From Candidatus Velthaea sp. (lineage in GTDB: Bacteria; Vulcanimicrobiota; Vulcanimicrobiia; Vulcanimicrobiales; Vulcanimicrobiaceae), in NCBI GenBank assembly GCA_050012475.1, contig JBEKHC010000010.1, positions 11,416 to 75,415 on the forward strand: a stretch of 64,000 nucleotides of DNA, in the 5' to 3' direction. The notes below the pieces were generated by a model. That model was not told the origin of the DNA. It searched no databases and saw only the letters and a list, made by a program, of their open reading frames with translations. Of this stretch, positions 22,571 through 44,013 are shown piece after piece (position 1 is the stretch's first letter; each line of letters begins with the position of its first letter). Both the position numbers and the translations under genes were made by a program.

Positions 22571-23011
22571 ATGGCAGCCTTTCGTTTTTCGCTGCAGCCA
22601 GTGCTCGAGCGGCGCACCCGGATCGAAACCGCGCAACGCGAGGTGTTGCTCGCCGCCGAGCGAGCCGCGGCGGGCGCGAGAGCCGAGCTGGTTGCGCTCG
22701 ACCTGCGCCTGCACGGGTTGAGCCGCGCTTTCAGCGGCTCGTTCGCGGCGCTCGGCGCAAGCGACGTCCGCGGGTTGCTGCTCGAAATCGAGGTCGTCAA
22801 AACGTCCCTTGCCAAGCAGCGGCACGTCACCGACGCCGCCCGCGCGGCGGCGAGCAGGGCGCGCGATGCGTTCGGGGCCGCACGCGCCGAGCGCACGACG
22901 CTCGAAGCCGTACGGGACAGATGCTACGCGACGTTCCTAGCCGAGCAAGAGCTGCGCGAGGCGGCAGAATACGACGAGTCCAACGCCCGGCGCCGCATAA
23001 TTTCGGCATAA
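22571..23011 (+). CDS. fliJ: FliJ-like export chaperone
   Basis: FRFSLQPVLERR N-terminus, coiled coil, E..EYDE near C-terminus; heads the flagellar-type operon. Confidence 0.65.
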   Translation: MAAFRFSLQPVLERRTRIETAQREVLLAAERAAAGARAELVALDLRLHGLSRAFSGSFAALGASDVRGLLLEIEVVKTSLAKQRHVTDAARAAASRARDAFGAARAERTTLEAVRDRCYATFLAEQELREAAEYDESNARRRIISA

Positions 23012-23054
23012 TCCGCGCACGGTCGGCCCATATTCGGCCGCTACGCTGTGCGGC

Positions 23055-23282
23055 ATGATGAATCTGACCGGCAACCTCGAATCGGCCGCGCTCGCCGGAC
23101 GCGACGGCCTAAGCGCCGACGCAGCGGGCACCGCGCGCTCGATGACGGGGCCGTCTGCGCAACGCGATTTCGAGGCCCCGATGGCGCAGGCCGCGCGGCA
23201 TGAGCTATTTACCGAAGCGTTGCTTTCGGCCGCCCACGCGCGGCTCGAAGAACTCAAGACCGCGGCCATGAACGGCCGATGA
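23055..23282 (+). CDS. Very short FlgB-like proximal rod protein
   Basis: 75 aa directly upstream of flgC; C-terminus DFEAPMAQAARHELFTEALL...LKTA resembles the FlgB C-terminal helix. Confidence 0.5.
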   Translation: MMNLTGNLESAALAGRDGLSADAAGTARSMTGPSAQRDFEAPMAQAARHELFTEALLSAAHARLEELKTAAMNGR

Positions 23283-23689
23283 CCGACTTTGCCATCCTCG
23301 GCGCCGCGTCGAGCGGGATGCAAGCGCAACGCGCGGCGATGGATATTGCCGCGCGCAATGTCGCGCTGGCACAAACCGGCGACGCCCGGCATCCGGCGCA
23401 TGGACTCGTGCCCGATTTCGCGACCGTTCTTTCCGCTTCCAGCGCGCCCGAAGGCCCGGAGGACGCCGACGTCACGGCTCTCGAGGCGCAACTTTCCGAC
23501 TCCGGCGACGACGCGAACGCCGGCGCAGTGGTTGCAATCAGCGGAGCCCACGTCGGCTCCGCGCCGCTCGATTCAATTACGGAGATGATCAACGTCTTGG
23601 ATTCACAACGCGCGTACGAAGCCAACGCGTCGATCTTCGACATCGGTAAACGCTTGTCGGAACGCACGATCGACATGGGGCGGCTGTGA
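23279..23689 (+). CDS. flgC: Basal-body rod protein FlgC
   Basis: ASSGMQAQR..MDI.A.NVA N-terminus; EMINVLDSQRAYEAN C-terminus. Confidence 0.85.
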   Translation: MTDFAILGAASSGMQAQRAAMDIAARNVALAQTGDARHPAHGLVPDFATVLSASSAPEGPEDADVTALEAQLSDSGDDANAGAVVAISGAHVGSAPLDSITEMINVLDSQRAYEANASIFDIGKRLSERTIDMGRL

Positions 23690-23994
23690 CCATCACGCCG
23701 CTGGACGCTATCGCAGAAAGCCCCGCTGCGACGGCGCTGGAGCCTGACATCTCGCGCGCATCCGGCAACGATGCGGCGACCTTCGGATTTGGAAGTTTGG
23801 TCTCTGCGCTGCGGGCCGGCACGCAATCGCTGCAGCGTGCGGAGGGTGCCGAAAACGCCTTCATCGGCGGAACCGGCGGACTGCAAGAGCTGGTCTTCGA
23901 GCGCGCCAAGGCCGACATCGTCGTCTCGATCGCGACGGCGGCTTCCTCGCGCGTGACCCAATCGATCAACACCGTCACCCAAATGCAACTATAG
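23686..23994 (+). CDS. fliE: Hook-basal body protein FliE
   Basis: 102 aa, L.ELV....KA, terminal MQL, position after flgC. Confidence 0.8.
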   Translation: MTITPLDAIAESPAATALEPDISRASGNDAATFGFGSLVSALRAGTQSLQRAEGAENAFIGGTGGLQELVFERAKADIVVSIATAASSRVTQSINTVTQMQL

Positions 23995-24064
23995 TGAATT
24001 CGACTTCATCGAATCCCTCGCGTTCGGCCTCACGGCTGAGCCGCATCAGTGCCAGGCTCTGACG

Positions 24065-25579
24065 GTGCTCAACGGAACCGTGCCACGCCGCTGGCAAGAT
24101 CTTTCGCGCTCCGCGCAGATCGGGTCGCTGGCGCTCGTCGCGATCGTGCTGATCGGACTGGCGGCCTTCTTCTTCACCCGCGATACGCAAACGGGACTCT
24201 TCGCGCGTCCGCTGCTGCCCGAGCAGCTCGCCGACGTCGAGACCCGACTGGCGGCCTGGAATGTGCCGTTCTCCGCGACGAGCGACAACGTTCGCGTTCT
24301 GAGCGCTCAGAAAAACGAAACGCTCTTGCGCCTGTCGCTCGCGGGCGTGCCGCGCCTGCACATCGCGGATTCGAGTGAAACGCTGGCCAAAGTCGGCGCG
24401 CTGACCCCGCAATCGGTCCTCGAAGCGCAGACGCGCGACGGACTTGCCGGCGACCTTGCGCTGGGCTTGCGCGACATCACCGGCATTTCCGACGCGCGCG
24501 TCATCATCGCGCCCGCAACGCCGGGCTACTTCGCCGACGAAACGGCGCATGAAGCCAGCGCCAGCGTTCAACTCGTGCGCGCGCCGAGCGCCCAGCTGTC
24601 GCCCGAAACCATCGGCGGGATCAAGGCGTTCGTGGCCGCCGGCGTGCCGGGGCTGGACCCGGCGCACGTCGCGGTCGTCGACGACCGCGGGGTCGCGCTG
24701 AGCGGCACCGCGTGGACTGGTGAAGGCGAAGCGCAGCAATTGCAGGCGTCCATTCAGTCGGCGCTCGATCAGGCGCTGGGGAATGGCCGGGCGATCGTCC
24801 GCGCCCACGTCGACGTCGATCCAACCACAAGCACGCAACACGAAACGAAGCGCACGCCGGTGACGGCCAAACCGATCGCCGGGCAAACGACTGACGAACA
24901 CTACACGAGCGACAAGAAACGCTACTCGAAAATTCAATCGTCGACCGACCGCGGCAGCGACGTCGTGGTCACCGATAAGAGCAGTGCCGCCGGGCGTCCG
25001 CAGCGCGTCTCGATCGCGGTGTTTCTCGATCGGCCGCTGGCTTCGGAGATCCCGCTCATTCGCTCGCTGGTGGAAAGCGCCGGCGGATTGAATTATGCGC
25101 GCGGCGACAGCCTCAGCGTGCAGCCCATCGCGCTCGCGACTGCCCCGCAAACGGCGCCGATTCGCACGGTCCCGCCGGCCCAAGCCGTGCTCGCGACGTT
25201 CGTGCCGCTCCTGCCGCCGACGATCTGGATCCTCGCGCTCGGCGGGCTGCTGGTCGTGTTCGCGCGCCCGCTCAAGCGGCTGCTCGCCGATTTGGGCCCG
25301 GGCGTTCCCGCTGCCGCACCGACGCTCGCTGCCATGTCCGTGCCGGGGCCGGCAAGCGCAGCAACGCTCCCCCCTGTCTCGCCCGACGCGATCTTCCGCG
25401 CGCTGGCCGACGAGCCGCCGCACACCGCGGCAACCGTGATCGCCGGATTGTCGACACCGGATGCGGCCGCCGTGCTCGACTTGTATCCGGCCGACGCGCG
25501 GCGCGAAATCATCAGCCGGCTGGCGCGCCCGCGGACGCCGTTGGCCAACGACGTGTCGGGCGCCGTCGGCCATGGCTGA
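24065..25579 (+). CDS. fliF: MS-ring protein FliF/YscJ family with fused C-terminal FliG-middle-like domain
   Basis: N-terminal TM, ARV.I..A, ASASVQL, FVAAGVPGLDP..V.VVD..G, RGDSLSV, second TM, then EPPHTAATVIAGL...AAAVL..YP...RREIISRLA. Confidence 0.8.
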   Translation: MLNGTVPRRWQDLSRSAQIGSLALVAIVLIGLAAFFFTRDTQTGLFARPLLPEQLADVETRLAAWNVPFSATSDNVRVLSAQKNETLLRLSLAGVPRLHIADSSETLAKVGALTPQSVLEAQTRDGLAGDLALGLRDITGISDARVIIAPATPGYFADETAHEASASVQLVRAPSAQLSPETIGGIKAFVAAGVPGLDPAHVAVVDDRGVALSGTAWTGEGEAQQLQASIQSALDQALGNGRAIVRAHVDVDPTTSTQHETKRTPVTAKPIAGQTTDEHYTSDKKRYSKIQSSTDRGSDVVVTDKSSAAGRPQRVSIAVFLDRPLASEIPLIRSLVESAGGLNYARGDSLSVQPIALATAPQTAPIRTVPPAQAVLATFVPLLPPTIWILALGGLLVVFARPLKRLLADLGPGVPAAAPTLAAMSVPGPASAATLPPVSPDAIFRALADEPPHTAATVIAGLSTPDAAAVLDLYPADARREIISRLARPRTPLANDVSGAVGHG

Positions 25580-26075
25580 AGCTTTTCGCAGCTTTGCCGC
25601 ACTGCTGCTCGGCCGCGACGAGGCCAACGCCGAGCCGCCGGGCCCGCCCGAATCCGAACCGGCCGTCATTACCGAACCATGCCGCGAAACCGACCCGCGG
25701 GTAGCCGATCTGCTGGCTGGGTTCACCGTCGAACTGAACCGGTTGACGGCGCGCGCCGCCGAACTGTTGGAGGAGCAGGCCGAAGCCGCACTCGCCGATC
25801 TCGCACGACGCGTGTTGGGACGGGAATTCGCTTCCTCGCCGGCCGAGATCGCAGCGCTGCTGGCCGAAACGCTCGCGGAGTTCGGCGTCACGCGGCCGCT
25901 CGCCGTACGCGTTTCGAGCGCCGACGCGCAGCACGTCGTTTCGCCCTGGCGCGTACAGATCGACCCGAGCCTTTCCGCCGGTGATTTCGCGGTCGACGTC
26001 GAGGACGGCAGCTACGATCTCAACGTCCAGACCCGGCTGGATGCGCTGCTCGCGGCGCACCGGATCGCGCTGTGA
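25572..26075 (+). CDS. fliH: FliH/SctL-like ATPase regulator
   Basis: LARRVLGRE, VRVS..D, DPSLSAGDF.V....G.YD; directly upstream of the ATPase. Confidence 0.75.
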   Translation: MAEAFRSFAALLLGRDEANAEPPGPPESEPAVITEPCRETDPRVADLLAGFTVELNRLTARAAELLEEQAEAALADLARRVLGREFASSPAEIAALLAETLAEFGVTRPLAVRVSSADAQHVVSPWRVQIDPSLSAGDFAVDVEDGSYDLNVQTRLDALLAAHRIAL

Positions 26076-27346
26076 GCTTTGCTGCCCGGCGCGGCCGGGT
26101 TCTCGCCGCGCTGGGCGAGAGCGTGATCGCCCAGCTGCCCGGGGCGCGTGTCGGCGAAGCGGTCACGATCCGGGTCGGCGCGGCGCCGCGCGTTCCCGCG
26201 ACCGTAACGCGCGTCGATGCCGCACGCGTTGAACTGCGGCCGCACACGTCGGTCGCCGGCGTCGGCGTGGGCGACGAAGTGGTGACCGACCCGCTGGCCA
26301 CGACTTTGCCGCTCGGGATGCGGCTGCTCGGGCGCGCGATCGATTCGGCCGGCTGCGCTCTCGACGCCAAAGGCAGCGTGCGCGGGCGCCGGAGCGCCGT
26401 CATCGATCCGCCGATCGATGCCGGTCAACGCGGTCCGGTCGAGCGGCCGTTTTGGACCGGCGTCAAAGCCATCGACGGGCTGATGACGATCGGCCGCGGC
26501 GCGCGTGTCGGCATTTTCGGCGGCCCGGCGACCGGAAAATCGCTGCTCGTCGAAGCGCTGGTGCGCGGCGCCGGCGCCGACGCCGTGGTCGTCGGGCTGA
26601 TCGGCGAGCGCGGCGCAGAAGCGGCGGCCTGGATGCAGCGCATCTCGCCGCACGCCACGATCGTGTGTTCGCCCAGCGATCGTTCCCCCAGCGAGCGCGT
26701 GCGCGCGGCGCACGTCGCGCTCGCGCAAGCATCGCAATTGCGCCGGCGCGGACTCAACGTGCTCGTCGTGCTCGACAGCCTGGCGCGCTTCGCGCTGGCC
26801 GCGCGTGAGATTGCGCTGCGCAACGGTGAAGCCGTCGGCCGCGGCGGCTATCCGCCCAGCGTCTTCGCCGAGATGACGCGGCTGCTGGAACGCGGCGGAA
26901 ACGTGGGCGGCGGCAGCATCACGCTCGTGGCGACCGTGCTGTCCGACGGGCCGGACGACCGCGAACCCTTGAGCGACGGGGCTCGCGCAGCCCTCGACGG
27001 ACACATCGTGCTGTCGGCCAAACTCGCGCGTCGCGGGCTCTTTCCCGCCATCGACGTGGCCGCCAGCGCGAGCCGCACGATGGACGCCGCGGTAAGCGCC
27101 GGGCATCGGCGCAGCGCGCGGATCGTGCGGCGAGCAATCGCGGCGCTCGACGCCACCCGTGAACTGCGCGACCTCGGTTTCAGCCATACCGACCGTCATC
27201 TCGAACGCGCCGTCGCGCTGCAAGAACGCATCGAAGCCTTCATCCACGACGGTCGGCGCACATCCGGCTCCGCCGAAATGCTGGCCGAGCTGCGCGCGCT
27301 CGCCGAACAACTGGATCTCGACGGACTCGAAGCGGTGTCTTTTTGA
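26072..27346 (+). CDS. fliI: Type III export ATPase FliI/SctN
   Basis: TGVKAIDGL.TIGRG.R.GIFGG..TGKS, LIGERG, DSL.RFA.A.REI, GYPPSVF, LLER.G, LDGHIVLS, FPAID. Confidence 0.92.
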   Translation: MSFAARRGRVLAALGESVIAQLPGARVGEAVTIRVGAAPRVPATVTRVDAARVELRPHTSVAGVGVGDEVVTDPLATTLPLGMRLLGRAIDSAGCALDAKGSVRGRRSAVIDPPIDAGQRGPVERPFWTGVKAIDGLMTIGRGARVGIFGGPATGKSLLVEALVRGAGADAVVVGLIGERGAEAAAWMQRISPHATIVCSPSDRSPSERVRAAHVALAQASQLRRRGLNVLVVLDSLARFALAAREIALRNGEAVGRGGYPPSVFAEMTRLLERGGNVGGGSITLVATVLSDGPDDREPLSDGARAALDGHIVLSAKLARRGLFPAIDVAASASRTMDAAVSAGHRRSARIVRRAIAALDATRELRDLGFSHTDRHLERAVALQERIEAFIHDGRRTSGSAEMLAELRALAEQLDLDGLEAVSF

Positions 27347-27954
27347 TAGCGCTCGCCGATGTCGCCGCCGTCGAACGCCGCGTCGCTCAACTCGCCGACG
27401 GCGAACGTCCGCCCATCGATCGCACGTCCGGCGGCGCCGCGTTTTCAGCACTGTTGGCTGCTGGGGGCGCCGCGCCCGACGGCACGCCGCCCGCGCCGCC
27501 GCCGCGTTCGATCCCCTTCGCCGAACTCGAGCGAACGATCGCGCAGGCGTCGGCGGCGAACGGGGTCGATCCCGCGCTGGTCAAAGCCGTCATTGCGAAC
27601 GAAAGCGGCTTCGACGCTGGCGCAACGTCGAGCGCCGGCGCGCAAGGACTCATGCAGCTCATGCCCGGCACGGCGGCGAGTGAGGGCGTCGCCGACGCGT
27701 ACGATCCGCGCCAGAATGTCGCCGGCGGAACGCACTATCTCCGTGGTTTGCTCGAACGTTTCCACGGCAATGTCGCGCTCGCGCTCGCGGGCTACAACGC
27801 TGGGCCGGGGGCGGTCGAGCGCGGCGCCATCGGAACCGAAACGCAAAACTACGTGCATTCGGTGCTCGCTTCGTACGCGGCGCTCCGTGCCTCCGCAAAG
27901 CCGGACGCCGACGCCGTTTCGCCGGACGCTGTTGCCGCAACGCCGATTGGATAG
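27343..27954 (+). CDS. Lytic transglycosylase (SLT domain)
   Basis: AVIANESGF, GAQGLMQLMP.TA, ALAGYNAGPG.V, ETQNYV. Confidence 0.93.
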   Translation: MIALADVAAVERRVAQLADGERPPIDRTSGGAAFSALLAAGGAAPDGTPPAPPPRSIPFAELERTIAQASAANGVDPALVKAVIANESGFDAGATSSAGAQGLMQLMPGTAASEGVADAYDPRQNVAGGTHYLRGLLERFHGNVALALAGYNAGPGAVERGAIGTETQNYVHSVLASYAALRASAKPDADAVSPDAVAATPIG

Positions 27955-28334
27955 CCGAACGGCTTCCGCAACGGCCCGAGGGGTGGGCTGCCCGTTCGCC
28001 GGAATGGACTCGAGGCCTCAACCGCCGCCGATCTGAAGCTCGAAGCAGCCCAGCTCGAGCGCGAGGCCGGTTGCCGGTTGCGCCCGGCGGTGAGCCGATG
28101 AGATTGCGCACGACTGGGAATCGTACTTCGATGTTCCTGATGGCCGAAGCTTCGAGGGACATTGGGTCACGGTGGAGCTCGGCGAGTCCGGCGGCGGATC
28201 GGTCTTGTCGCTTACAACGACAGCGATCCGCGAGCGCGCCGAGCGTGACGCGGCCGACAGCTATTGGCTCGATAAACTCTTCAAGCTCTATTGGGCGCTG
28301 CAATCCGATCGTTCAGGTGCGTTGTCGCCGACAG

Positions 28335-28706
28335 CTAGAATTGAATAGCACACAGGCGTGGCGCGGCTGGGACCGGATAAAGTTTCGCTTCGATAAAGTA
28401 CGTAACTACCATAATACCGACAAAAACTATCGTCACGAGCATCCATCTTGATGCACTTGCACGAAGAGATGCAACGAGCGGAAGTCCAAATAGCACGCCC
28501 GGAAGCCAAATTATCGCACCGAGTGTAACTTCGCTGACAATGAGCAACTCATTGAATGAACCTTCTCCGCAGTCGTGATAATGCGCAAGCAGGGACAACG
28601 TCATCCAAACACATGCGCTCATAACGGTCACTAAAAATACCGCAAGGGCGGCATTTGGTGGCGGCTTCGAGCTCTTCTCGTCGTCCATGTCGTCCATGTC
28701 GTCCAT
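28335..28706 (-). CDS. Hypothetical membrane protein in an AT-richer islet
   Basis: 123 aa, about three hydrophobic segments, N-terminal MDDMDDMDD. Confidence 0.5.
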   Translation of the reverse strand: MDDMDDMDDEKSSKPPPNAALAVFLVTVMSACVWMTLSLLAHYHDCGEGSFNELLIVSEVTLGAIIWLPGVLFGLPLVASLRASASRWMLVTIVFVGIMVVTYFIEAKLYPVPAAPRLCAIQF

Positions 28707-28711
28707 GTCGT
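28681..28711. repeat. 9-bp tandem repeat (TCGTCCATG) x3.4
   Basis: Directly visible; encodes MDD repeats on the minus strand. Confidence 0.85.
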
Positions 28712-29117
28712 TGATTAAACTCTCGCCGTTTGGACCCGCTTCCCCTCGCGAATCTAATACTTTCTAGGCCAAGTCGGAGACGGTCATCCGAATCTGACCG
28801 CCGGTAGGCGCGACGACACGACCGGCTCGAGCTGCATGCGCTCGCAACCACCGTCAAAGAGCACGATGCTGAACGTTGTACCGAGTTTGCTGCACTTGTG
28901 CCCTTATTGGGTATGTAGTGGGTGATCGGGAATCACACGGTGTCGCATAGCGGGAGGTACGTTCCTGGCGTGATCGCAGCTCTCGGACCAAACACAACGC
29001 GTCCGAGCAAGCAACGTTAGTGAGAAACTCCTTCTTCTTTTGCTCGTCTCAGGCGGATCAGATTGTCAAGTGGAACGATTGCTCCGGTATCGGATCATGG
29101 ATACGGTTGCTTCGGGC

Positions 29118-29882
29118 CTAAGCGATCAAGATGGAGCTCTGCGTGCAATCGTCGGGCGGATACTCCGGCGCGTCGCCGTGCTCGCCCCTTTCGTCCGCTG
29201 GACGCCGGCACGGTTGTTCGTGCCGGCGCTTGCGGCGATCGAGGGTGTCCGGAGCCGGCGGTGTGAGCGCGTTGGCCACCAAGATCGGCGGCGGCGTGTT
29301 GTCGGCATCCGGCGTAGCGGGAGGCAGCAAGCGCAGCGCCGCATCGCTGCCGTAGCGCTCGATGGAGGCGGCTAGACGACCGGCGGTCGCCGCAGCGAGT
29401 TCCGTCTTGCTGGGGGACGCGGCGCCGCGCGTCCGCCCACCGGCCGCAAGCTGCGCCAGTGTCAGCTGGGCGATGAACGCTTCCCGCACTTGGGTCGGAA
29501 GCGCCGCGATGACGGTCGCGAACGCCTCGCCATACCGTCGGAGCAACACTCCGACCGCGTTCGGCCCGTACTCCGGCATCGTTTGCAGCAACGCCGCGAC
29601 GTGCGCGTAGGGAACGCCGAACGTCGTCGCCGGATCGCATGCGATGCTATCGGCGGCCGGCATCGGACCGGTAAAAGCCCCCAGCGCTGAATCGACTGGG
29701 GTTTCCGCTGCCGCAGCAACGCGAACCGCCGGCACCGGCGAAACGCCTGGTAAGGCATCGAATTCCCTCATCCGGCCTCCTCCGCTCCCCCGCAGCGCCC
29801 TTTCACGCGCACGGGGTGCTTTTTCAAGGGCCGGCGGCCTCGGACCGACGATTATTTTGCGCGCAGAGAACACATCGGACAC
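29118..29882 (-). CDS. Hypothetical protein divergent from fliQ
   Basis: 254-aa ORF with a helical-looking core (PYAHVAALLQTMPEYG...); start uncertain. Confidence 0.5.
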   Translation of the reverse strand: MSDVFSARKIIVGPRPPALEKAPRARERALRGSGGGRMREFDALPGVSPVPAVRVAAAAETPVDSALGAFTGPMPAADSIACDPATTFGVPYAHVAALLQTMPEYGPNAVGVLLRRYGEAFATVIAALPTQVREAFIAQLTLAQLAAGGRTRGAASPSKTELAAATAGRLAASIERYGSDAALRLLPPATPDADNTPPPILVANALTPPAPDTLDRRKRRHEQPCRRPADERGEHGDAPEYPPDDCTQSSILIA

Positions 29883-29906
29883 ATAAGCCGCCGCTACGCT
29901 TGCGAC

Positions 29907-30179
29907 GTGGATGTTTTTGACGGCCTCCTGCGCGAGGCGCTCGTCGTGTGTGCGGTCATCTGCTTGCCGGTCTTAGGGGCGGCGGCGCTCATCGGGACGA
30001 TCATTGCGATCGTCCAGGCGGCGACGCAGATTCAGGAACAGACGTTGACGCTGCTGCCCAAGCTCATCGTCGTCGCGTTCGTGGTCGCCGTGTTCGGCCG
30101 GTTCGGTTTGGGATTGTGCGCGAATCTCTTCACCGACGCGCTCGGCCGCATCCCGGCGTTGATTTCGTCGCTGGGGTGA
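29907..30179 (+). CDS. fliQ: Export gate protein FliQ/SctS
   Basis: QAATQIQEQTL..LPKL. Confidence 0.93.
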   Translation: MDVFDGLLREALVVCAVICLPVLGAAALIGTIIAIVQAATQIQEQTLTLLPKLIVVAFVVAVFGRFGLGLCANLFTDALGRIPALISSLG

Positions 30180-30895: not shown

Positions 30896-30898
30896 TTC

Positions 30899-36360: not shown

Positions 36361-36604
36361 GCGCGCGGGGGAGCGCCGCCGTTCCACAACGCCTGCACGG
36401 ATCGGCAAAAGAGGCTGATACGACAGAGTCCCGAGCGTCACGAGCGACCATCCGCCCCGTGGCGCTCGAGCTTCTTTTCTCGATCGTTTTCACGCCGCGT
36501 GCACACCCCAACCATATCAACGGGTGAAAGCCGCCCCATCTCGATCGGCGGGTCTGATGCTCGCCCGTTGAATTCTGCGCGGACCGCCTCGTTCGTGCCG
36601 ATCC

Positions 36605-36922
36605 TCAACCGAAACGATACGCGCCGCTGTCGTCGATTTGAACCGTGCCGTGCTCGATTTCCAAGCGGTGGACGCGATGATCCCAGTAGCCGAGCAGCCG
36701 GATCGCATACGGCTTCATTCGTGCGAGCAGCGCTTTGGTCGCGCTCGAGACGACGAAGCGGTCGCGCACCCATTTCGGATGATCTCGCGGCAAGACGATC
36801 TCGCCGATCGCACCGGCATCGGTCAAGCCGCCCATGACCGTCGGCGATTCGGCCGCCTGCTGCGCGGGCGGTGCAGCGCTGGTTCCCTCGCGCCGTCGCA
36901 CGATTCCAGCTCGTTTACTCAT
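36605..36922 (-). CDS. Hypothetical protein coupled to fliA
   Basis: ATGA overlap with the fliA stop; 105 aa. Confidence 0.55.
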   Translation of the reverse strand: MSKRAGIVRRREGTSAAPPAQQAAESPTVMGGLTDAGAIGEIVLPRDHPKWVRDRFVVSSATKALLARMKPYAIRLLGYWDHRVHRLEIEHGTVQIDDSGAYRFG

Positions 36923-37587
36923 GCGCTGATCATCTCTTCGCGAACGATTTCGAGCGCGCGATCGCGCAACTGCGCGATGCGCTGCTTGGTCACGGACAAC
37001 TCGCGCGCTACGGCTTTGAGTCGATAGCCGGAAAAAAAGTAGAGTTCGACGACCTGCCGATGGCGCACGGGCAATTTCTGGAGCGCCGCCCGTAAAATCG
37101 CGCGTGCCTCGTGTTCGCAGTACAGCCGAGCCGGATCCGTTTCCCAGTTCGCAGCGACCAGCGCGTCGACCGGGATCGCATCATCGAGTGAAACGCACGA
37201 ACGGTGATGGGCGGCAATCCGAGCAGAGCGCAGCTTGGGATGCCGGCGCTCCATCTCGAGCATCGACGGCAGGTGACCAGCCGTCAGCGCGATGGCGTAG
37301 CGGTCCCGTTCCGCCTGACGTAAGATACGCCGGGTGAATTCGGTCAGCCGGTCCATGCGCCGCAACCCGTTGAGCATTGCGCCGAGAATGCGGGCGCGCG
37401 CGTAGCGATCGAGCGACGCTCCGCGAGCCGGATCGTAGGAATCGACCGCGCGGACGAGCCCCAGGCAGCCTTCGCCGACCAGATCGTCGAGGTCCACGCG
37501 CCCGGCTCGGCGTGCTACCGTGCGCGCGATGGTGCGGACTACCGGATACAATCGCACGATCGTCGCATCCCGCTCGGCCGCGGTCAT
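36919..37587 (-). CDS. fliA: Sigma-28 (FliA/WhiG family) RNA polymerase sigma factor
   Basis: DDLV.EG..GL..A...YDP.RG, YAR.RI.GAML..LRR.D, region 4 L..VA..L.VT..RI.Q. Confidence 0.85.
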   Translation of the reverse strand: MTAAERDATIVRLYPVVRTIARTVARRAGRVDLDDLVGEGCLGLVRAVDSYDPARGASLDRYARARILGAMLNGLRRMDRLTEFTRRILRQAERDRYAIALTAGHLPSMLEMERRHPKLRSARIAAHHRSCVSLDDAIPVDALVAANWETDPARLYCEHEARAILRAALQKLPVRHRQVVELYFFSGYRLKAVARELSVTKQRIAQLRDRALEIVREEMISA

Positions 37588-37844
37588 TTGAGCCGCTCGG
37601 CGTCCTGGGCGGCGGCGCCGCCGGCGCCGGAACGTTCGGTCAGCGCTCGCAACTCATCGTAGAAGGCGTCGTGTTGGCCGCGCGCGATGGCGGCGCCCAG
37701 CGCATCGGTGAACACGTCGCCCAGCGGCCCCAATGCTTGCGCCAAGGGCGCGAGCACGCTCGACCACAACAGGCCCTCGAACTTCGCCGCGGTCTCGGCG
37801 TTCGGCGCCGATCCCGCCGCAGTTCTCGGCGGATCGACCGCCAA
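37584..37844 (-). CDS. FlgJ-like rod-binding domain protein (no muramidase domain)
   Basis: AAKFEGLL...VL motif like the FlgJ N-terminus; lies after flgG; probable TTG start at 37844. Confidence 0.5.
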   Translation of the reverse strand: MAVDPPRTAAGSAPNAETAAKFEGLLWSSVLAPLAQALGPLGDVFTDALGAAIARGQHDAFYDELRALTERSGAGGAAAQDAERLK

Positions 37845-37860
37845 CGGGACGCCGGCGGGA

Positions 37861-38589
37861 CTAGCTGCGCTGGATGTTGTTGGCAACACGCATCATCTCG
37901 TCGGCGGCAGTAACGCCTTTGGCGTTGGCTTCGTAGGCGCGCTGCGCAGAGAGAATTTCCATCATCGCTTCGATCACCGAGACGTTCGAGCGTTCGAGCA
38001 TCCCGAACGCGACCTTCGGACCGCCGTCGCGACCGGCATCCACATAGCGCACGGGTCCCGAATCGTTGGTCGCCGCGAACACGGTCGAACCGGCGACGCG
38101 CAGACGTTCGGGCGCGGCAAACGTGGCTAGGCGGATGCGGCCGGCAAACTGACGCTTCCCGGCCAGCGTGTCGACGTAGGTCATGCCGTCCGGTTCGGCC
38201 GTTATCGCCAGTGCATCATCGGGAACCTTGATGCCGACGAGCGAGAAACCGTCCGCGTTGCGCAACACGCCGTCGGGCGTGCGGTGAAATTCACCGTCGC
38301 GGCTGTAGACGAACGTCCCATCGGGGCGCTTGAGGGTAAAGAAACCGACGCCGTCGATTGCCGCGTCGAACGGACCACCCGATTTCATGAGCTTGCCCTG
38401 CTCGAAAAGCAGCTGTTTGCCGGTGAATGCGGTGCCCAGACCCGAGGTGCCGTCGGTGAGTGCAGCAAACCTGGCGGCACTGCCTTTGAATCCGGGCACT
38501 TCGGCATTGGCAAGATTGTCCGAAATCGTCTCGAGATTGTTTTGCTGCGCTGCCATCCCCGTTGCAGCCGCGAACATCGCCCGGTTCAT
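37861..38589 (-). CDS. flgG: Distal rod protein FlgG
   Basis: AATGM.AQQ..L..I..NLAN...GFK, D.AI.G.GFF, YSRDG.F, LERSNVS...M...QRAYEAN.K....ADEM. Confidence 0.88.
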   Translation of the reverse strand: MNRAMFAAATGMAAQQNNLETISDNLANAEVPGFKGSAARFAALTDGTSGLGTAFTGKQLLFEQGKLMKSGGPFDAAIDGVGFFTLKRPDGTFVYSRDGEFHRTPDGVLRNADGFSLVGIKVPDDALAITAEPDGMTYVDTLAGKRQFAGRIRLATFAAPERLRVAGSTVFAATNDSGPVRYVDAGRDGGPKVAFGMLERSNVSVIEAMMEILSAQRAYEANAKGVTAADEMMRVANNIQRS

Positions 38590-39200
38590 TGAATCTTTCC
38601 CATCCCGTTAGCGGCTTTCGAGCGCGTTTCGTCGATCGCGACGAGCGTTTTTTGCGCGGTCTCGAACGCGCGCTGCGCATCGATGACGCCGATCATCTCG
38701 CCGATCGAGTTGACGTTCGAGCTCTCGAGGAAGCCGCTCCGCACGGTGGTGCCGCGCGGCAGCGCCAACTGCGCGACGGCCCGGCCCGACGCACGCCACG
38801 TTCCGTCGGCTTCGATCGCCGGCGCGCCGGGCGGCAAACGAACGAAACCGTTCTTGCCCAGCAGCGTGCGGCCGTGCGCGTCGACGAGATAGCCGTCGCA
38901 GTCAGAGGTGAACGCTCCCGCCCGCGTCGCAACGCGCAACTGCGGATTGCGGTCGGGCGCGACGAAAAACGAACCGCCGCCGATGAGGGCGAGATCCAGC
39001 GTGCGTCCGGTGAAGCGCGCGGGGCCTTTCTCGGGCGATGCGACCGCAACGGTCGTGAGGCCGCGTCGTGACGCAACGGTCCGGGCCAGGTGTTTGTGAA
39101 AGCCGTCGGTCGACGCGTTGGCGAGATTGTCGGTGGCGATTTCGAGCTTCGCCTTGGCGGAGAGCATTGCGCTCGCCATCCATTGAATGCCGGTCAACAT
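38586..39200 (-). CDS. flgF: Rod protein FlgF (shortened)
   Basis: NLANAST.GF, TGR.LDLAL.G..FF, TRAG.F, GFLESSNVN...EM...I..QRAFE. Confidence 0.82.
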   Translation of the reverse strand: MLTGIQWMASAMLSAKAKLEIATDNLANASTDGFHKHLARTVASRRGLTTVAVASPEKGPARFTGRTLDLALIGGGSFFVAPDRNPQLRVATRAGAFTSDCDGYLVDAHGRTLLGKNGFVRLPPGAPAIEADGTWRASGRAVAQLALPRGTTVRSGFLESSNVNSIGEMIGVIDAQRAFETAQKTLVAIDETRSKAANGMGKIQ

Positions 39201-39259
39201 AGTCTCTACCTTACTTTTGAAAGATGCGTACAGTATTTTCTGAGCGCCGCGGATTTCGG

Positions 39260-39913
39260 TCAGCGAAAGCTGCTCGCGATGCCGCCGCAGACCAGCGTCC
39301 AGCCGTCGACCATAACGAACAGCAGGAGCTTACACGGCAGCGAGATCACGGGTGGACTGAGCATGAACATGCCGAGGCCCATGAGGATCGACGCCACCGC
39401 CAGATCGATGGCCACGAAGGGCAAATACAGCGCGAAACCGATCGCGAACGCGCTGCGCAATTCGCCGACCACGAACGCCGGCATGACGACCGAGACTGGC
39501 TGCAGCGACGCTTGTGCTTCGGGCTCGTGCGCCACGCGCTCGAAGAGATCCAGATCTTTTTTGCGCGTCTGCCGGAGCATGAACGCGCGCAGCGGTTCGA
39601 TGCCGCGCTCGATGAGCTGCGCTTGCGAGATGCGGCCTTGACTGTAGGGCACGATGGAATCGTGCGAAATGCGCTGCAGCGTCGGCGTCATGACGACGAC
39701 GGTCAGCACCAACGAAACGCCGATCAAAACGATGTTGGGCGGCAGCGCTTGGGCGCCGATCGCGGAGCGCACGAGCCCGAGCACGACCACGATGCGCACG
39801 AACGCCGTCGTCATCACGAGCAGCAGCGGCGCGATGGCCAGGATCGTCAGACTGCCCAGCACGTCGAGCGGCAGGGCCGCGTGACTGCCGGGAAGGGCGA
39901 AGCCGGGTATCAT
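39260..39913 (-). CDS. fliP: Export gate protein FliP/SctR
   Basis: TAFVRIVVVL...R.A.G....PPN, P.R.FM..QT, PAF...EL..AF.IGF..YLPF..IDL.VAS.LM..GM.ML.P..ISLP.KLLLFV..DGW. Confidence 0.95.
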   Translation of the reverse strand: MIPGFALPGSHAALPLDVLGSLTILAIAPLLLVMTTAFVRIVVVLGLVRSAIGAQALPPNIVLIGVSLVLTVVVMTPTLQRISHDSIVPYSQGRISQAQLIERGIEPLRAFMLRQTRKKDLDLFERVAHEPEAQASLQPVSVVMPAFVVGELRSAFAIGFALYLPFVAIDLAVASILMGLGMFMLSPPVISLPCKLLLFVMVDGWTLVCGGIASSFR

Positions 39914-39919
39914 GCCGGA

Positions 39920-40177
39920 TCAGCGCTGCGCGACGAGTTCGGTGATCCGAACGCCGTAATTGTCGCCCACCGCCACGATGTCGCCGCGGGCAACGATTTT
40001 GTCGTTGACGAGCAAATCGATCGGTCCGCCGGCGCAGCGATTGAGGTCCAGGATCGATCCGGTGCCCAGTTGCAAGACCTCTTCGATCGTCAGCTTGCAC
40101 GTGCCGAGTTCAGCGGTCACGTGCAGCGGCACGTGCATGAGCAGCTCGAAGTTGCCGTACTCGTCGGGCGGGCTCAT
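39920..40177 (-). CDS. fliN: C-ring protein FliN
   Basis: VPL.V..ELG, L..GS...L....G.PID..VN...ARG..V.V...YGVRITE; ATG 40177 overlaps the upstream stop. Confidence 0.9.
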   Translation of the reverse strand: MSPPDEYGNFELLMHVPLHVTAELGTCKLTIEEVLQLGTGSILDLNRCAGGPIDLLVNDKIVARGDIVAVGDNYGVRITELVAQR

Positions 40178-40986
40178 GTCGTCGCCTCCCGGCGGCCCGC
40201 AGCCGCGATGACAACCGCGTTGCTTTGGGCGCGGATGCCGCAGTCGCCGCTGGCGACGACGCAATCGCCGATCTTGACCATCGTCGGCGCACCGATCTTC
40301 GTATCGAGCCGCACCGTCTGTCCCACCCGCCAGGCCGCGATTTCGCGCGCGTTGACGACCGCCTCGGCGAACTGCGCGCGAACGTCGAGCGCGATGCCGG
40401 ACAACATCGAACGCTCCAGCTTGCCGCCGAAGCGCGGACCCGGATCTTGCGAGAGCCCGATGCCGATCACGGCATCGAACGGCAGGCCGATCCGCAACTC
40501 GAAATACGTGACGCAGCGTGCGTCTTCACGCTCGGGTTCGATCCGTGCGAGGCCGTTCGCGTCGCCGCAGAACGGTGCGCAGAGCGCCGCGACCTCGGCG
40601 GCGATGCGTTCGAGCGCACGTTCTTCGAGCGCAGAAAGCGGCACGTTTTCGCCGCCGCACTCTTCGCCGAACACGCCCTGCGCGATGCGCCGCGCGTCGC
40701 GCCGGCGGAACACGACGTAGAGGTCGCAGATACTGCCACGCGCCCGGTACAGGCTTCCGCGCTCGAAAAGGACGCGCTGCGTGCCGTCTTTGACGAGCAC
40801 GGGCGCAAAGACGTCGAGCGTCAACTCGCGGGCCAGCAGGTTCGAGAGCCGGGCTCGCGCGTGATTGGCCGCTGCACACACGGCGGAAATCGGCAAGTCC
40901 GTGACCGGCTCGAAATAGGTCTCACGAACGAGTTTCGCGCCCGACGCGCCGCTGGGTTGGGCCCGAAAGCGCAGCATCGTGATCAC
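40174..40986 (-). CDS. Divergent FliM/SctQ-like C-ring protein with C-terminal SpoA domain
   Basis: C-terminal I..W.VG..V.LD.....P...KIG......G..G; LS.LE...L middle motif; upstream of fliN. Confidence 0.65.
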   Translation of the reverse strand: MITMLRFRAQPSGASGAKLVRETYFEPVTDLPISAVCAAANHARARLSNLLARELTLDVFAPVLVKDGTQRVLFERGSLYRARGSICDLYVVFRRRDARRIAQGVFGEECGGENVPLSALEERALERIAAEVAALCAPFCGDANGLARIEPEREDARCVTYFELRIGLPFDAVIGIGLSQDPGPRFGGKLERSMLSGIALDVRAQFAEAVVNAREIAAWRVGQTVRLDTKIGAPTMVKIGDCVVASGDCGIRAQSNAVVIAAAGRREATT

Positions 40987-41711
40987 TTGATGAGATCCAC
41001 GGCGATCTTGGCCGCGCGGGCATCGGCCTGTGTGCCCGCGCTCATAGCATCGAGCGCGAGGAACGCCTCGCGAAGCTGAACGAGCCCGGCCTCGAAGTCG
41101 ACCGACCCGAGGTCGCGCGATTGCGTCGCGAGCGCCCCGAACGATCCTTCCGTCGCCCGCCCGACGGTCGCGACGATACCGGGCGCGGGCACCGCCTGCG
41201 TCGCGCCTACGCGCTGCAGTTCGGTTCCGGCCGGGAAGCGCGCTAAAGCCACCCGCCCGACGGCGACGCGTTCTTTGGACGGTTTGTTGGTCTTGGGATC
41301 GATCACGGTGCGCGTGTAGGCGACGGTGCCGTCGGCCTCGACGTGCGCTTCGCTCACCCGTCCCAGCGCGGCATCGACGGGATCGACATGCAGCGGCTGC
41401 GGCGACGCGCCCCGCGCCGCGGCGGGAAAGCCCAGCACCGCCGAACCGTCGGCGAAGCGAACGGTCCCGTCGACGACGGCGAAACTTCCGTCGCGCGAAT
41501 AAAACGGCTTCGCGGCTTTATCCAGGCCCATGAAGTAGGCGTGTTCGGGAGCCGCAACGCTCATCGGATCGAGCGCCGGTTTCGGGGGCGCCGGCGTCGC
41601 GCTGCGCACATCGTGATACGTGGCTTCGTACCCAGGCACATACGCGTTGAGCATCTCTTGGGTGCGCGCCGCGAGTTCGCTGAGCGCTTGCGCCGGACCG
41701 GGATTGATCAT
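40983..41711 (-). CDS. Short, degenerate FlgE/FlgG-family axial protein (242 aa)
   Basis: FYSRDGSF, GSAVLGFP, VGRVALARFP....L, LGSVD near C-terminus; ANNIAN motif eroded. Confidence 0.65.
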   Translation of the reverse strand: MINPGPAQALSELAARTQEMLNAYVPGYEATYHDVRSATPAPPKPALDPMSVAAPEHAYFMGLDKAAKPFYSRDGSFAVVDGTVRFADGSAVLGFPAAARGASPQPLHVDPVDAALGRVSEAHVEADGTVAYTRTVIDPKTNKPSKERVAVGRVALARFPAGTELQRVGATQAVPAPGIVATVGRATEGSFGALATQSRDLGSVDFEAGLVQLREAFLALDAMSAGTQADARAAKIAVDLIK

Positions 41712-42331
41712 GAATGCCCTTTCTGGATAGCATCGATCTCGATACGCACGCCGCGGCGCAGCAACGCGGCACGGGCTGCATCGAGTGCGGCCGCGACGCG
41801 CGGCGAGTTCCGGCCGTCATAGATGGCGATCAGACGCAGCACGGTACCGTGTTGCTGCACGAGCAGGTCGACGCCTGTGCCGTCGCCGAGTCTCGCCCGG
41901 CAATGGATTCGCTTGCGTACGATCGCGCCGGCGGCCGGCCGGAGCGTTGCCGTGACGCGCTGCTTGCGAGCCGGCAGCGCCGGGGAAAGCGCCGGCGCTG
42001 AGCTGACGAGCCGCATGCGCAGCGCCCGTTGCGCGAACGCGTTTGGGCTCGCGCCGGTTTGTGCTCCTGCACGCGCCGGCGCAGCGCGCAACGCCGCGGC
42101 AGCGCCGGCGACGAGCTCGGGGCGATTGCGTCCATTCGCGGCCGGTGGCTGCGCCGTAGCGCGCGGATGGAAGAGCGCGCGATACCACGCTTCAGAAAGC
42201 GCGCGGCGATCCGTGTACACCGAAGGCGATGCAAACGAAGCATTCGGCGGCTGCGGTACGATCTCGTTCACGGACGCTGTTCCGGCATGAACGAAGCGTA
42301 GCGCCGGAATTTGGGACGGCCGTGACCGCAT
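41708..42331 (-). CDS. FliK-like ruler protein (low-complexity N-terminus, T3S4-like C-terminus)
   Basis: Ala/Pro/Arg-rich region then G.VDLLV.....LRL.......V..AL...R.AL..RGV.I; ATGA-coupled to the FlgE-like gene; start 42331 or 42271. Confidence 0.45.
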   Translation of the reverse strand: MRSRPSQIPALRFVHAGTASVNEIVPQPPNASFASPSVYTDRRALSEAWYRALFHPRATAQPPAANGRNRPELVAGAAAALRAAPARAGAQTGASPNAFAQRALRMRLVSSAPALSPALPARKQRVTATLRPAAGAIVRKRIHCRARLGDGTGVDLLVQQHGTVLRLIAIYDGRNSPRVAAALDAARAALLRRGVRIEIDAIQKGHS

Positions 42332-42395
42332 TATGGTCCGGGTGTGTGCCGACGCGGGCGCGATCGCTTCGCTGAGCCCGCGCAGCGTGCGGCGG

Positions 42396-43076
42396 TTACG
42401 CGGCCACAAACTTATAGCCGTACCCATAGATCGTCGTGAGGCAGGGCGGTAACTGCAGCTGCTCTTCGACTTTCGTCCGAACGCGCCGAATGTGTCCGTC
42501 GACGGTGCGGTCGTCGCCGTCGTAATCGAAACCCCACACCTTTTGCAGCAAGGTTTTGCGCGACAGCACGACGCCGGGATTGCTGGCCAGCGCCCATAGC
42601 AGCGAGAACTCCTTGGGGCGTAAACCGGCGTCGACACCGTCGACGCGCGCGACGCGCGCGCCTTCGTCGAGTTCGAGCCGTCCATAGCGCAGCACGCGCG
42701 CGGCCGGCTCGGCGTCGGCCGTCTTGCGCCGCAAGATCGCGCGCACACGGCACACGACTTCGCGCGGAAAGAACGGTTTGGCGACGAAATCGTCTGCCCC
42801 CAGTTCGAACGTCACGACCCGGTCGATCTCGTCGGTTCGGCCGCTGAGCACGAGGACGGGAATGGACCGGTTCTCGCCGCGCAACGTCCGCATGACGCCC
42901 ATTCCGTCGATCACCGGTAAGCCCAGATCGAGGATCACGAGTTCGGCGCCTTCGCGAACGTGACGCAGCGCCGCGCAGCCGTCGGCGGCTTCCACGGCAT
43001 CAAAGCCCTCACTCTTGAGGTGAAAGACCATCAGGCTTCGAACGGCCTGATCGTCGTCGGCTACTACGATACGCAT
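42396..43076 (-). CDS. OmpR/PhoB family response regulator
   Basis: VADDD, ILDLGLP..DG, GADDF..KPF, wHTH L.PKEF.LL, RTVDGHIRR.R.K, TIYG.GYKF; no kinase adjacent. Confidence 0.95.
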   Translation of the reverse strand: MRIVVADDDQAVRSLMVFHLKSEGFDAVEAADGCAALRHVREGAELVILDLGLPVIDGMGVMRTLRGENRSIPVLVLSGRTDEIDRVVTFELGADDFVAKPFFPREVVCRVRAILRRKTADAEPAARVLRYGRLELDEGARVARVDGVDAGLRPKEFSLLWALASNPGVVLSRKTLLQKVWGFDYDGDDRTVDGHIRRVRTKVEEQLQLPPCLTTIYGYGYKFVAA

Positions 43077-43563
43077 TTATGCTCCAAGCTTTCTGGGGCG
43101 AAACACACGCTGCACGGTCCCGCCGCAACGAAACGACCGCGAACGCACCACGCAGGTGTGACGGCAAAGAGATCTCGAGATGTGCGAATGGCGCCAACGC
43201 CGTACGCGAGGCGTGCAATTGTGACGCGATGTTGAGCGTGTGTGCAAAATCTTCCAATGCCGCGGTCACAACCGGCGCGTAACATGACGGGATGGGAGAC
43301 CGAAACGCGCCCACATCGACGCCCCACGTCGCGCGCAGCGCGTCTGGCGGGGGCGAATCGTCCGGACAAACCGTGAATGTTCGAGCTGGCGGCAATCCTG
43401 GCATTGCCCTGGTGACGACGCTTGCTCCCCGACGTATCACCCGGTGCAGCACTTGTGCGACCGTTCACAATCGAACCAATCAGGCAAACGCGCGCGCACA
43501 CATCCGGTCGGCGCTTGCCGCCTTCGCGTCGGCCCGGCGACCGAGGCCTGACGGTCAGGCGCG

Positions 43564-44013
43564 ATGAGCGATATTCCTACCGTGCTGCGCATCGTCTCGG
43601 CATTCGCCGTCGTTGTGCTGCTGTTGTACGCCTTTGCCGTCGTCGCGCGCCAGCGCCGGGGAACGAAACTGCACGCGCGCAGCGATCGGCTCATCACGGT
43701 GATCGAGACGACGCCCCTGACGCAGAACGCGTCGCTGCACGTCGTGAAAGTGGGCGAGCGCTACCAGGTGATCGCGCTGACGTCGGCTACCGTTTCGCAG
43801 CTAGGTGAAATCGAGCCGGCAACGGTCGGACGCATCGCCGGCTCGCGCGATGCACCGTCGTTCTTTGCCGGAGCCGGCCGGCGGCCGAGCGCCCCTGCCG
43901 GGCAGCCGCCGCGAAGATCGCGGACCGGAGACGCTCAACCGGGCTGCGACGGCAATGCTCCAGACGGCGCGCACGGTACGGATCCATTTGATCGATCGGC
44001 CGCGCCTCAGTGA
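43564..44013 (+). CDS. fliO: FliO-like export gate chaperone
   Basis: N-terminal TM, then I.VIETT.L.....LHVVKVG.RY.VI......V..L.EI; C-terminal tail runs into the pseudogene. Confidence 0.75.
   Translation: MSDIPTVLRIVSAFAVVVLLLYAFAVVARQRRGTKLHARSDRLITVIETTPLTQNASLHVVKVGERYQVIALTSATVSQLGEIEPATVGRIAGSRDAPSFFAGAGRRPSAPAGQPPRRSRTGDAQPGCDGNAPDGAHGTDPFDRSAAPQ

Follow-up and report, generated by a model that had tools for sequence, protein, structure and literature searches.

Gene cluster and its derived parts

The 64,000-nucleotide (nt) stretch of DNA analysed here (the window) belongs to a 5.36-Mb metagenome-assembled genome (MAG) of a soil bacterium of the Eremiobacterota, which comprises 204 contigs with 93.8% completeness and 5.3% contamination. 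Between a uvrC gene (20467-22491, minus strand) and a gene for a class II lanthipeptide synthetase of the LanM type (44218-47292, minus strand), both recognised with Pfam, the window carries three groups of flagellar-type genes, which probably encode a non-rotating type III machine that is derived from the flagellum, stands alone and is conserved in the class Eremiobacteria, and of which the genome holds two paralogous copies. Because the window has a G+C content of 65%, open reading frames (ORFs) were picked by third-position G+C and then scanned against Pfam. Every listed ORF of the cluster is open, the cluster is intact at 22.5-44 kb, and in genome-wide searches for Flagellin_N, Flg_bbr_C and FHIPEP the matches on contig C10 were confined to it. 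The flagellar genes listed in an earlier note on this DNA were all recovered in the Pfam scans, fliE with a score below its Pfam cut-off and the sigma factor gene below the cut-off of its best NCBIfam family, and so were the boundaries it had named, uvrC on the left and a locus for a ribosomally synthesised and post-translationally modified peptide on the right.

The first group (plus strand, 22562-27954) opens with a gene for a FliJ-like export chaperone or stalk protein (22562-23011; Pfam FliJ E 4.9e-9, 36.9 bits, above cut-off; TIGR02473 below its cut-off), followed by a conserved 75-aa ORF at the usual position of flgB (23055-23282), a flgC-like proximal rod gene (23279-23689; Pfam Flg_bbr_C E 3.6e-5; TIGR01395 FlgC 54.5 bits, below cut-off) and a fliE-like gene (23686-23994; Pfam FliE E 7.6e-4, 20 bits against a cut-off of 22.4). 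Then come fliF for the MS ring (24065-25579, 504 aa; Pfam YscJ_FliF, YscJ_FliF_C and FliG_M), fliH (25461-26075; Pfam FliH E 3.2e-11; an internal ATG at 25572 may be the true start), the export ATPase gene fliI (26072-27346; Pfam ATP-synt_ab E 5.4e-60) and, as the last gene of this operon, a lytic transglycosylase gene (SLT, 27343-27954; Pfam SLT E 6.6e-28), whose best NCBIfam match is the flagellar-assembly lytic transglycosylase, with a score below cut-off. Among 80 related loci, the best 80 of 251 confirmed stretches encoding a FliF fused as described below in species-representative genomes, the 75-aa ORF is conserved in 21, flgC in 74, fliE in 72 and SLT in 64. As a candidate FlgB the 75-aa protein was rejected, its profile finding nothing relevant in the PDB and hhalign giving a probability of 0.3% against the FlgB of the genome.

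Genes for the export gate form the second group (plus strand, 29907-33945), namely fliQ (29907-30179; Pfam Bac_export_3 E 5.1e-21), fliR, flhB (30899-31903; Pfam Bac_export_2 E 5.5e-71) and flhA (31900-33945; Pfam FHIPEP E 1.7e-186). The start of fliR (30170-30895) is uncertain, its Bac_export_1 match (E 3e-31) running from residue 80 of a longer ORF (29948-30895) that overlaps fliQ. The third group lies on the minus strand, from 42331 down to 36605. It begins with genes for a 207-aa protein (41708-42331), a 242-aa protein (40983-41711) and a 270-aa protein in which Pfam detects FliMN_C alone (40174-40986), and continues with fliN (39920-40264; FliMN_C E 1.6e-23; TIGR02480 89.8 bits, above cut-off; an internal ATG is probably the start, giving ~86 aa), fliP (39260-39913; Pfam FliP E 3e-72; TIGR01103 above cut-off), a flgF-like rod gene (38586-39200; Flg_bbr_C E 1.1e-13 and Flg_bb_rod) and a flgG-like distal rod gene (37861-38589; Flg_bb_rod, LlgE_F_G_D1 and Flg_bbr_C; TIGR02488 187.6 bits, below cut-off). 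The group ends with a small ORF (37584-37889; no Pfam or NCBIfam match), a sigma factor gene (36919-37587) and a conserved 105-aa ORF (orf105, 36605-36922). The FliPQR-FlhAB gate and the FliHIJ ATPase complex all score above Pfam cut-offs, and most of these proteins below NCBIfam equivalog cut-offs.

The motifs for secretion are kept, as the earlier note had observed, with an NPTH autocleavage motif at residues 249-252 of FlhB; FliI has Walker A and B motifs. The note's remark on a 217-aa FliP that lacks a signal peptide was likewise borne out by comparison of N-termini, the canonical FliP of the same genome having one. The ORFs scanned at 20-47 kb gave no Pfam match to flagellin, FliD, FlgK/L, FlgH/I, MotA/B, che genes or a stand-alone FliG, which agrees with the absences the note had reported. 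Its description of a stripped-down flagellar cluster holds insofar as the cluster is conserved and its motor and filament parts are gone, and needs amending insofar as genes for FliM-like, FlgE-like and FliK-like proteins are retained. These three had been overlooked, together with a piece of FliG fused to FliF and two further flhA genes in the genome.

The C-terminal ~50-65 residues of FliF (nt about 25382-25531) resemble the middle domain of FliG. They match positions 1-50 of the 76 positions of Pfam FliG_M (E 1.1e-7) and align to the FliG of the same genome (residues 141-193), where DEPPHT is paired with EEHPQT, such that EPPHT stands where FliG has EHPQ; an alignment of homologues shows the tail to be conserved among relatives. 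In canonical motors, that part of the FliG middle domain is the FliM-binding surface. In the reduced set, FliG survives solely as the FliG_M piece at the end of FliF.

The 270-aa protein is predicted to be the counterpart of FliM. Its AlphaFold2 model (predicted local distance difference test, pLDDT, 82.9) has as best Foldseek match the full-length Salmonella FliM of a C-ring structure (8umd_C, E 7.9e-8), with template-modelling (TM) scores of 0.56-0.62 against crystal structures of the FliM middle domain. The model suggests a CheC-like middle domain followed by a FliN-like C-terminus, as in FliM; Pfam gave no detection of the FliM domain in this protein. It has no N-terminal CheY-binding peptide, whereas the canonical FliM of the genome has LSQEEIDAL; we take an N-terminal peptide of the LSQxEIDALL type to be the CheY-P binding motif of FliM.

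We identify the 242-aa protein, from profile comparison, as a mini-hook of the FlgE type, with D0 and D1 of the axial FlgE/F/G family and without D2. A profile of 20 orthologues searched against the PDB matched FlgE 3a69 with E 2.4e-14, in an alignment that covers the C-terminal D0 and D1 in both its halves, and FlgG and FlgF far more weakly (~E 3e-5); the single sequence matched only Pfam LlgE_F_G_D1 (E 0.031). The gene is found in 62/80 related loci. Upstream of it, the 207-aa protein has an ORF at the same position in 59 related loci, and we read it, on its fold alone, as a ruler of the FliK/SctP type with a T3S4 domain. The alignment is conserved in a short N-terminal motif and in a C-terminal domain, the two being joined by a variable linker of low complexity, and the AlphaFold model has disordered residues 55-128 and a compact C-terminal α/β domain (pLDDT about 90). 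With this domain, the top two Foldseek matches in the PDB were, at weak E-values, the FliK C-terminal domain 2rrl (E 4e-3) and the switch domain of PscP, 5cuk (E 2e-2). An independent all-against-all alignment with 48,161 representative chains again placed PscP and FliK first (Z 8.0 and 7.6; next 6.4). The sequence profile found no match in the PDB, and hhalign found nothing against the candidate canonical FliK, an ORF with an MgtE_N match on contig C42.

The sigma factor (Pfam Sigma70_r2 and Sigma70_r4) has TIGR02479 FliA_WhiG as its best family, with 117.8 bits against a curated cut-off of 189.6, and is called FliA-type here in that looser sense. Directly after fliA, orf105 recurs in 6/6 complete genomes examined, at 34-49% identity, and also on contig C57 of the window genome. 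It could be an anti-sigma factor or another sigma partner; no Pfam or NCBIfam match and ESM Atlas scores of at most 0.79 did not identify it as the former. For the small ORF between flgG and fliA, tblastn gave matches in 2/6 complete genomes and 75-84-aa ORFs occupy that place in two more, and its position suggests a rod-cap role (FlgJ N-terminal).

Occurrence with and without a flagellum

The fused FliF belongs to a family with hundreds of metagenome members. The best 80 of the 251 stretches are nearly all titled as Eremiobacterota or Vulcanimicrobiota MAGs, and a few, going by record titles only, as Rhodospirillales, Armatimonadota, Acidiferrales or Janthinobacterium. In most loci the set forms one co-directional operon in the order small ORF, flgC, fliE, fliF, fliH, fliI, SLT, fliK-like, flgE-like, fliM-like, fliN and fliP, continuing with a methylenetetrahydrofolate reductase (MTHFR) gene, fliQ, fliR, flhB and flhA; a retropepsin-like gene often stands between SLT and the fliK-like gene. 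A separate second operon, flgF-flgG-(small ORF)-fliA-orf105, was found in 6/6 complete genomes examined.

The window genome holds three flhA genes, that of the window, one on contig C15 and one of a canonical flagellum. The C15 gene belongs to a second reduced set on C15 and C57, which is of the widespread type, repeats the parts of the window set, the FliG_M-tailed FliF among them, and shares 42-65% identity with it. The window set is a rearranged second paralogue with orthologues in a few loci only (L024 and L092). A complete ordinary flagellum is encoded on contigs C93, C42 and C163 with its own full export apparatus. It comprises fliD, three flagellin genes, fliW, flgL/K/N/J/I/H/A/G/F, fliE, flgC, fliF/G/H/I/J, flgD, flgE, motAB, fliM/N/O/P/Q/R and flhB, and an flhA gene adjoined by cheA and cheC; the only FliG_C copy of the genome lies on C42.

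The window set could thus be a second, divergent but working flagellum that borrows FliG, stators, rings, junction and filament from the canonical regulon. All its missing parts are encoded elsewhere in the window genome, and dual flagellar systems are known in other bacteria. Within the window genome, however, the filament, stator and FliG genes come with an export apparatus of their own, the fused FliG_M piece of FliF sits where FliG would bind, and the FliM-like protein has no CheY-binding motif. The distribution of the two systems across the phylum also bears on this reading. We searched 251 evenly drawn genomes with the fused-FliF profile (E <= 1e-30) and with FliG_C, the tallies including 7 and 3 unpublished genomes, respectively. 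In the family of the window (f1), fused FliF was found in 144/160 genomes and FliG_C in 66/160; by hand comparison of the lists, 81 genomes carry the reduced set alone, 63 carry both, 3 carry just FliG_C and the other 13 carry neither. The 63 genomes with both systems would suit a borrower, and the 81 with the reduced set alone would not. Family f2 has both in 3/3 genomes, and f3 has fused FliF in 18/18 (weaker matches, E 1e-74 to 1e-84) and FliG_C in none of the 18. The same contrast between fused FliF and FliG_C is seen within genera (g4, 43/50 against 0/50; g19 and g25, each 7/7 against 0/7; g3, 3/3 against 0/3). In the remaining families the profile matched weakly in 23/69 genomes (E 1e-31 to 1e-45), which we take to be ordinary FliF, and FliG_C was present in 62/69.

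We then take 13 genomes with the reduced set only, 93-99% complete and six of them single contigs, as a stand-alone test set. Searches of all 13 found no MotB_plug (MotA was not searched separately), no FlgI (FlgH was not searched separately), no FlgD and no FliG_C, a domain lacking overall in 94/160 f1 and 18/18 f3 genomes. Flagellin_N gave no match above the Pfam cut-off in any of the 13, and two matches below it. FliG_M exceeded its cut-off solely in the FliF tail, in 13/13 genomes. Each genome has exactly three Flg_bbr_C genes, and therefore no FlgK or full-size FlgE; FliD was not searched separately. Secretin genes, which one single-contig genome lacks altogether, lay far from the cluster wherever they occurred. 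Among five f3 genomes, none has flagellin, each has three rod genes and four have the mini-hook. Two of five large records reached via the loci, one of them titled as a complete chromosome, carry the reduced flhA alone, with no flagellin and no FliG_C. The reduced set is thus conserved and occurs in many genomes without flagellum genes, and we regard a borrower of flagellar parts as very unlikely.

That so many flagellar parts are lost, that most remaining proteins are divergent and below equivalog cut-offs, and that flhA or fliF is split in some long-read MAGs would suit a lost flagellum that has left a decaying, functionless remnant. Yet the same ~20 genes are preserved undamaged and in unchanged order in three families (165/181 sampled genomes), with catalytic and autocleavage motifs kept, and the features that set the apparatus apart, the FliF-FliG_M fusion and the mini-hook, are themselves conserved. 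In the window genome the set is moreover duplicated, with both copies retained at the identity given above. A relic is therefore highly improbable in our view, and we hold the machine to be neither a relic nor a borrower.

Relation to flagella, injectisomes and other reduced machines

Where flagellar and injectisome models of NCBIfam can be compared, the flagellar one scores higher for FlhA (TIGR01398, 596 bits against 464 for SctV, both below cut-offs), FliP (230 against 185 for SctR), FliR (81 against 65 for SctT), FliQ (62 against 57 for SctS) and FliF (61 against 28 for SctJ). FliI is a near tie with SctN (344 against 336, both below cut-offs), and for FlhB the injectisome model SctU is marginally higher (195 against 202). 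We inferred an FlhA/SctV tree from 698 columns with IQ-TREE under LG+C20+F+G4, using posterior mean site frequencies (PMSF), for 38 rows of our own choice: 9 reduced-type (including those of the window and C15), 2 from f3, 14 canonical Eremiobacterota, 6 SctV, 6 plasmid-borne flagellar FlhA from other phyla and 1 aberrant long-branch sequence. The reduced clade, the reduced clade with f3, and the six SctV rows each received 100/100 support, and a branch with 100/99 groups SctV with the other flagellar FlhAs, apart from the reduced clade. This clade has a long stem (0.71), and the canonical FlhA of the genomes concerned is not its sister group.

The independent derivation from flagella that the earlier note had suggested fits this maximum-likelihood topology and the gene content. 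In an approximately unbiased (AU) test on a quick tree, however, forcing the reduced, f3 and SctV rows together was not rejected (ΔlnL 11.5, p = 0.174), and FlhA alone therefore does not establish independence from injectisomes. The reduced and SctV groups are both long-branched and the sampling is small, and the case for independence is thus carried mainly by gene content, in which FliE, rod and hook proteins are present and a secretin is absent.

The apparatus resembles a flagellum in its FliPQR-FlhBA gate, FliHIJ complex, FliF ring, FliE, FlgC/F/G rod, FlgE-type hook, FliK-type ruler, FliM/FliN ring, lytic transglycosylase and FliA-type sigma factor, as well as in the five comparisons above that favour flagellar models. 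It differs in the loss of the N- and C-terminal domains of FliG, with a FliG_M piece on FliF instead, in the absence of MotB, FlgI, FlgD, FlgK and flagellin above cut-off from the stand-alone genomes, in a hook protein without D2, a FliM-like protein without the CheY peptide and a FliP without a signal peptide, and in the separate, long-stemmed FlhA clade. Like an injectisome, it has lost motor and filament and kept the export core, ATPase, an SctQ/FliMN-type platform and an SctP/FliK-type ruler, and the window FliP, having no signal peptide, resembles SctR in length. Unlike an injectisome, which to our knowledge lacks FliE, FlgC/F/G rod proteins and an FlgE-type hook, it keeps all of these, has no secretin adjoining the cluster, and its FlhA falls outside the SctV clade (100/100). 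SctD-, needle- and translocon-like families did not turn up in Pfam scans of the ORFs of the window and three related loci, although no dedicated profile search was made for them. The apparatus therefore lacks what defines a motility flagellum (FliG_C, stator, filament, L/P rings) and also the injectisome features that were tested (a place in the SctV clade, an adjacent secretin).

A few other systems come close. Abby and Rocha reportedly described, in 2012, a secretin-less, early-branching Myxococcales form of the non-flagellar type III secretion system. The aphid symbiont Buchnera has filament-less hook-basal bodies that have been proposed to be protein exporters; they are a recent reduction of an ordinary enterobacterial flagellum in a shrinking genome, and ordinary FliG and rings are retained. 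The Eremiobacteria set is similar in that a flagellar basal structure is kept without flagellin or motility and export is the presumed role, but as a paralogue it is old and divergent, has a fusion and a mini-hook of its own, and often occurs beside a full flagellum. The flagellar export CORE (FliOPQR-FlhAB) is said to have been proposed by Bhattacharya et al. in 2019, and debated since, as a nanotube platform in Bacillus and non-flagellated species. There, too, a flagellar export gate serves a non-flagellar purpose, whereas the Eremiobacteria set keeps ring, ATPase, rod, hook, ruler and sigma factor besides the gate.

On balance, we lean slightly towards a third kind of type III machine besides flagella and injectisomes, one that would be old, independently derived and non-rotating, with a rod and a length-controlled mini-hook, a FliF-FliG_M anchor and its own sigma factor, serving as a protein-export or envelope device. 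In the stand-alone, non-rotating machine that the window probably encodes, whether or not it is such a third kind, FliF would build the inner-membrane ring, and its tail, with EPPHT for EHPQ, would replace FliG as the dock for a cytoplasmic ring of FliM-like protein and FliN. Since this ring has neither a CheY-binding peptide nor a torque domain, it would serve FliH-FliI-FliJ as a fixed sorting platform that has no rotor, switch input or stator. The FliPQR-FlhBA gate would export FliE, the rod proteins FlgC, FlgF and FlgG and the 242-aa mini-hook, presumably in this order, while the dedicated lytic transglycosylase would cut a hole in the peptidoglycan for the axial structure. At a set axial length, the FliK/SctP-like ruler and FlhB, through its NPTH motif, would switch substrate specificity. 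In flagella, FlgM and sigma-28 link completion of the structure to late genes; here the FliA-type sigma factor and its small partner may likewise tie completion to the expression of late substrates. With no genes for stator, L/P ring, secretin, junction, cap or filament, the structure could neither rotate nor form a filament, and would either end in the periplasm or cross the outer membrane by other means. We infer that protein export, rather than a structural role, is its job. The earlier note had gone further and proposed secretion of small pilin-like proteins or a pilus; nothing points to either, and no pilin family turned up in the general Pfam scans of window ORFs, none of which was aimed at pilins.

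An alternative that we consider unlikely, though less so than a relic or a borrower, is a mainly periplasmic structural or signalling device, for example an envelope-spanning anchor or a checkpoint that frees the FliA-type sigma factor by exporting its partner. The searches for adjacent secretins and for FlgI found no outer-membrane component, the sigma factor and the small partner gene share an operon with flgF and flgG in 6/6 complete genomes, and the presence of a ruler protein points to a structure whose length is set. The searches gave nothing, on the other hand, that marks the partner as an anti-sigma factor, and a full ATPase complex, a ruler and a switch are equally what a secretion machine needs.

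Several points weigh against a conserved, stand-alone export machine. It is known from genes alone, its assembly and export being inferred. Almost every component scores below NCBIfam equivalog cut-offs, and functions are therefore assigned from homologous but divergent proteins. The parts found do not explain how an apparatus with rod and hook proteins, but with neither L/P rings nor a secretin, would cross the outer membrane, and flagellar hooks need an FlgD cap, of which the stand-alone genomes showed no FlgD-like candidate (0/13). The window genome is a MAG with the contamination given above, although single-contig genomes also hold both the reduced and the canonical system. The AU test, as said, does not reject a grouping with SctV. 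Finally, fliN is the sole member of the set listed in the description of Vulcanimicrobium alpinus, the phylum's only cultured member. According to this paper, V. alpinus shows no flagella by negative staining, has no flagellin gene, glides by type IV pili and has fliN listed in Table S8 (PMC9758169). With fliN listed for a flagellum-less isolate, structure, substrates and function may be directly testable.

Our literature search, whose coverage excluded most subscription journals, found no description of the reduced system. Injectisomes are thought to stem from flagella, with motility parts lost first, and we know of no characterised extant intermediate with rod and hook. The reduced system is widespread in a phylum abundant in soil and peat, alone or beside a normal flagellum. 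If our reading is correct, it would give a present-day parallel to the step with which the evolution of injectisomes is proposed to have begun. It would also offer a natural route to the replacement of FliG, through fusion of a FliM-docking piece to the MS ring. For annotation, a positive score for 'flagellar assembly' genes does not prove motility in genomes of this phylum.

Neighbouring genes and further loci

An OmpR-type response regulator (42396-43076, minus strand; Pfam Response_reg and Trans_reg_C) is encoded immediately upstream of the fliK-like gene. It is a possible regulator of the window copy only, being at the same position in 1/80 related loci (L024). Beyond it, a FliO-like ORF (43564-44013, plus strand; Pfam FliO E 1.8e-9) is what the earlier note had counted as part of the export gate. 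The ORF is real, but it has a match in 0/80 related loci and its 3' part lies inside a duplication, and its membership in the reduced set appears doubtful. The duplication is direct, of ~310 nt and 87-91% identity (43905-44217 and 48041-48433), and flanks the LanM gene and its neighbours; the FliO-like ORF extends into the left copy. The right copy takes in the 5' end of a gene for a BTAD-AAA-TPR regulator (48091-51267) and ~50 nt ahead of it, which suggests that the lanthipeptide cassette was inserted into the start of that gene or duplicated together with it. Further right of the cluster, an ECF-type (extracytoplasmic function) sigma factor gene (51293-51946, minus strand) and one for a VirD4/TraG-type type IV coupling protein (52045-53982, minus strand) hint at a conjugative or integrative element nearby.

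Between the sub-operons of the window, the ORFs at 27954-29907 and 33945-36605, including that of a RibD_C protein, have no counterpart in the 80 related loci and are therefore treated as probable insertions rather than parts of the apparatus. The stretches 28000-29900 and 34000-36600 have a lower G+C content (0.60-0.61), look like insertions splitting the cluster, and encode a 123-aa membrane protein, a 254-aa ORF and the RibD_C protein.

The MTHFR gene between fliP and fliQ was present in every locus inspected closely (C15, L018 10694-11599; L095 16653-17552; L054 18578-19465; L045 18394-19303), an odd conserved passenger of a secretion operon. On C15, it is separated from fliQ by two inserted genes, one for a bacteriophytochrome-GGDEF protein and one for a heme oxygenase (L018 7524-10397). 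The retropepsin-like protein (Asp_protease_2) is encoded in many loci (L045 13513-15297; L054 14001-15176; C15, L018 14948-16822), that of C15 also having a LolA-like region, and could be an accessory envelope component. The gap between SLT and the fliK-like gene measures about 2.1-2.3 kb with the retropepsin gene and about 620-640 nt without it; the gene is absent from the window.

Five genomes of other families (G012, G015, G020, G040 and G067) have many ORFs of ~380-1000 aa in which the match is limited to the C-terminal, cytoplasmic half of FlhA (FHIPEP positions about 320-656), with 5-15 FHIPEP matches per genome, and L126 holds a very divergent full-length FlhA-like gene with a branch length of 4. 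The fused-FliF profile matched in two pieces (about 4-250 and a second match) in G078, G127, G157, G183, G186, G214, G248 and G254, mostly of genus g25, which could mean that fliF is split or rearranged there, or that the assembly of long-read MAGs introduced errors. No RNA run is listed as containing the stretch itself, parts of which are present in 20 DNA runs from soil and peat metagenomes.

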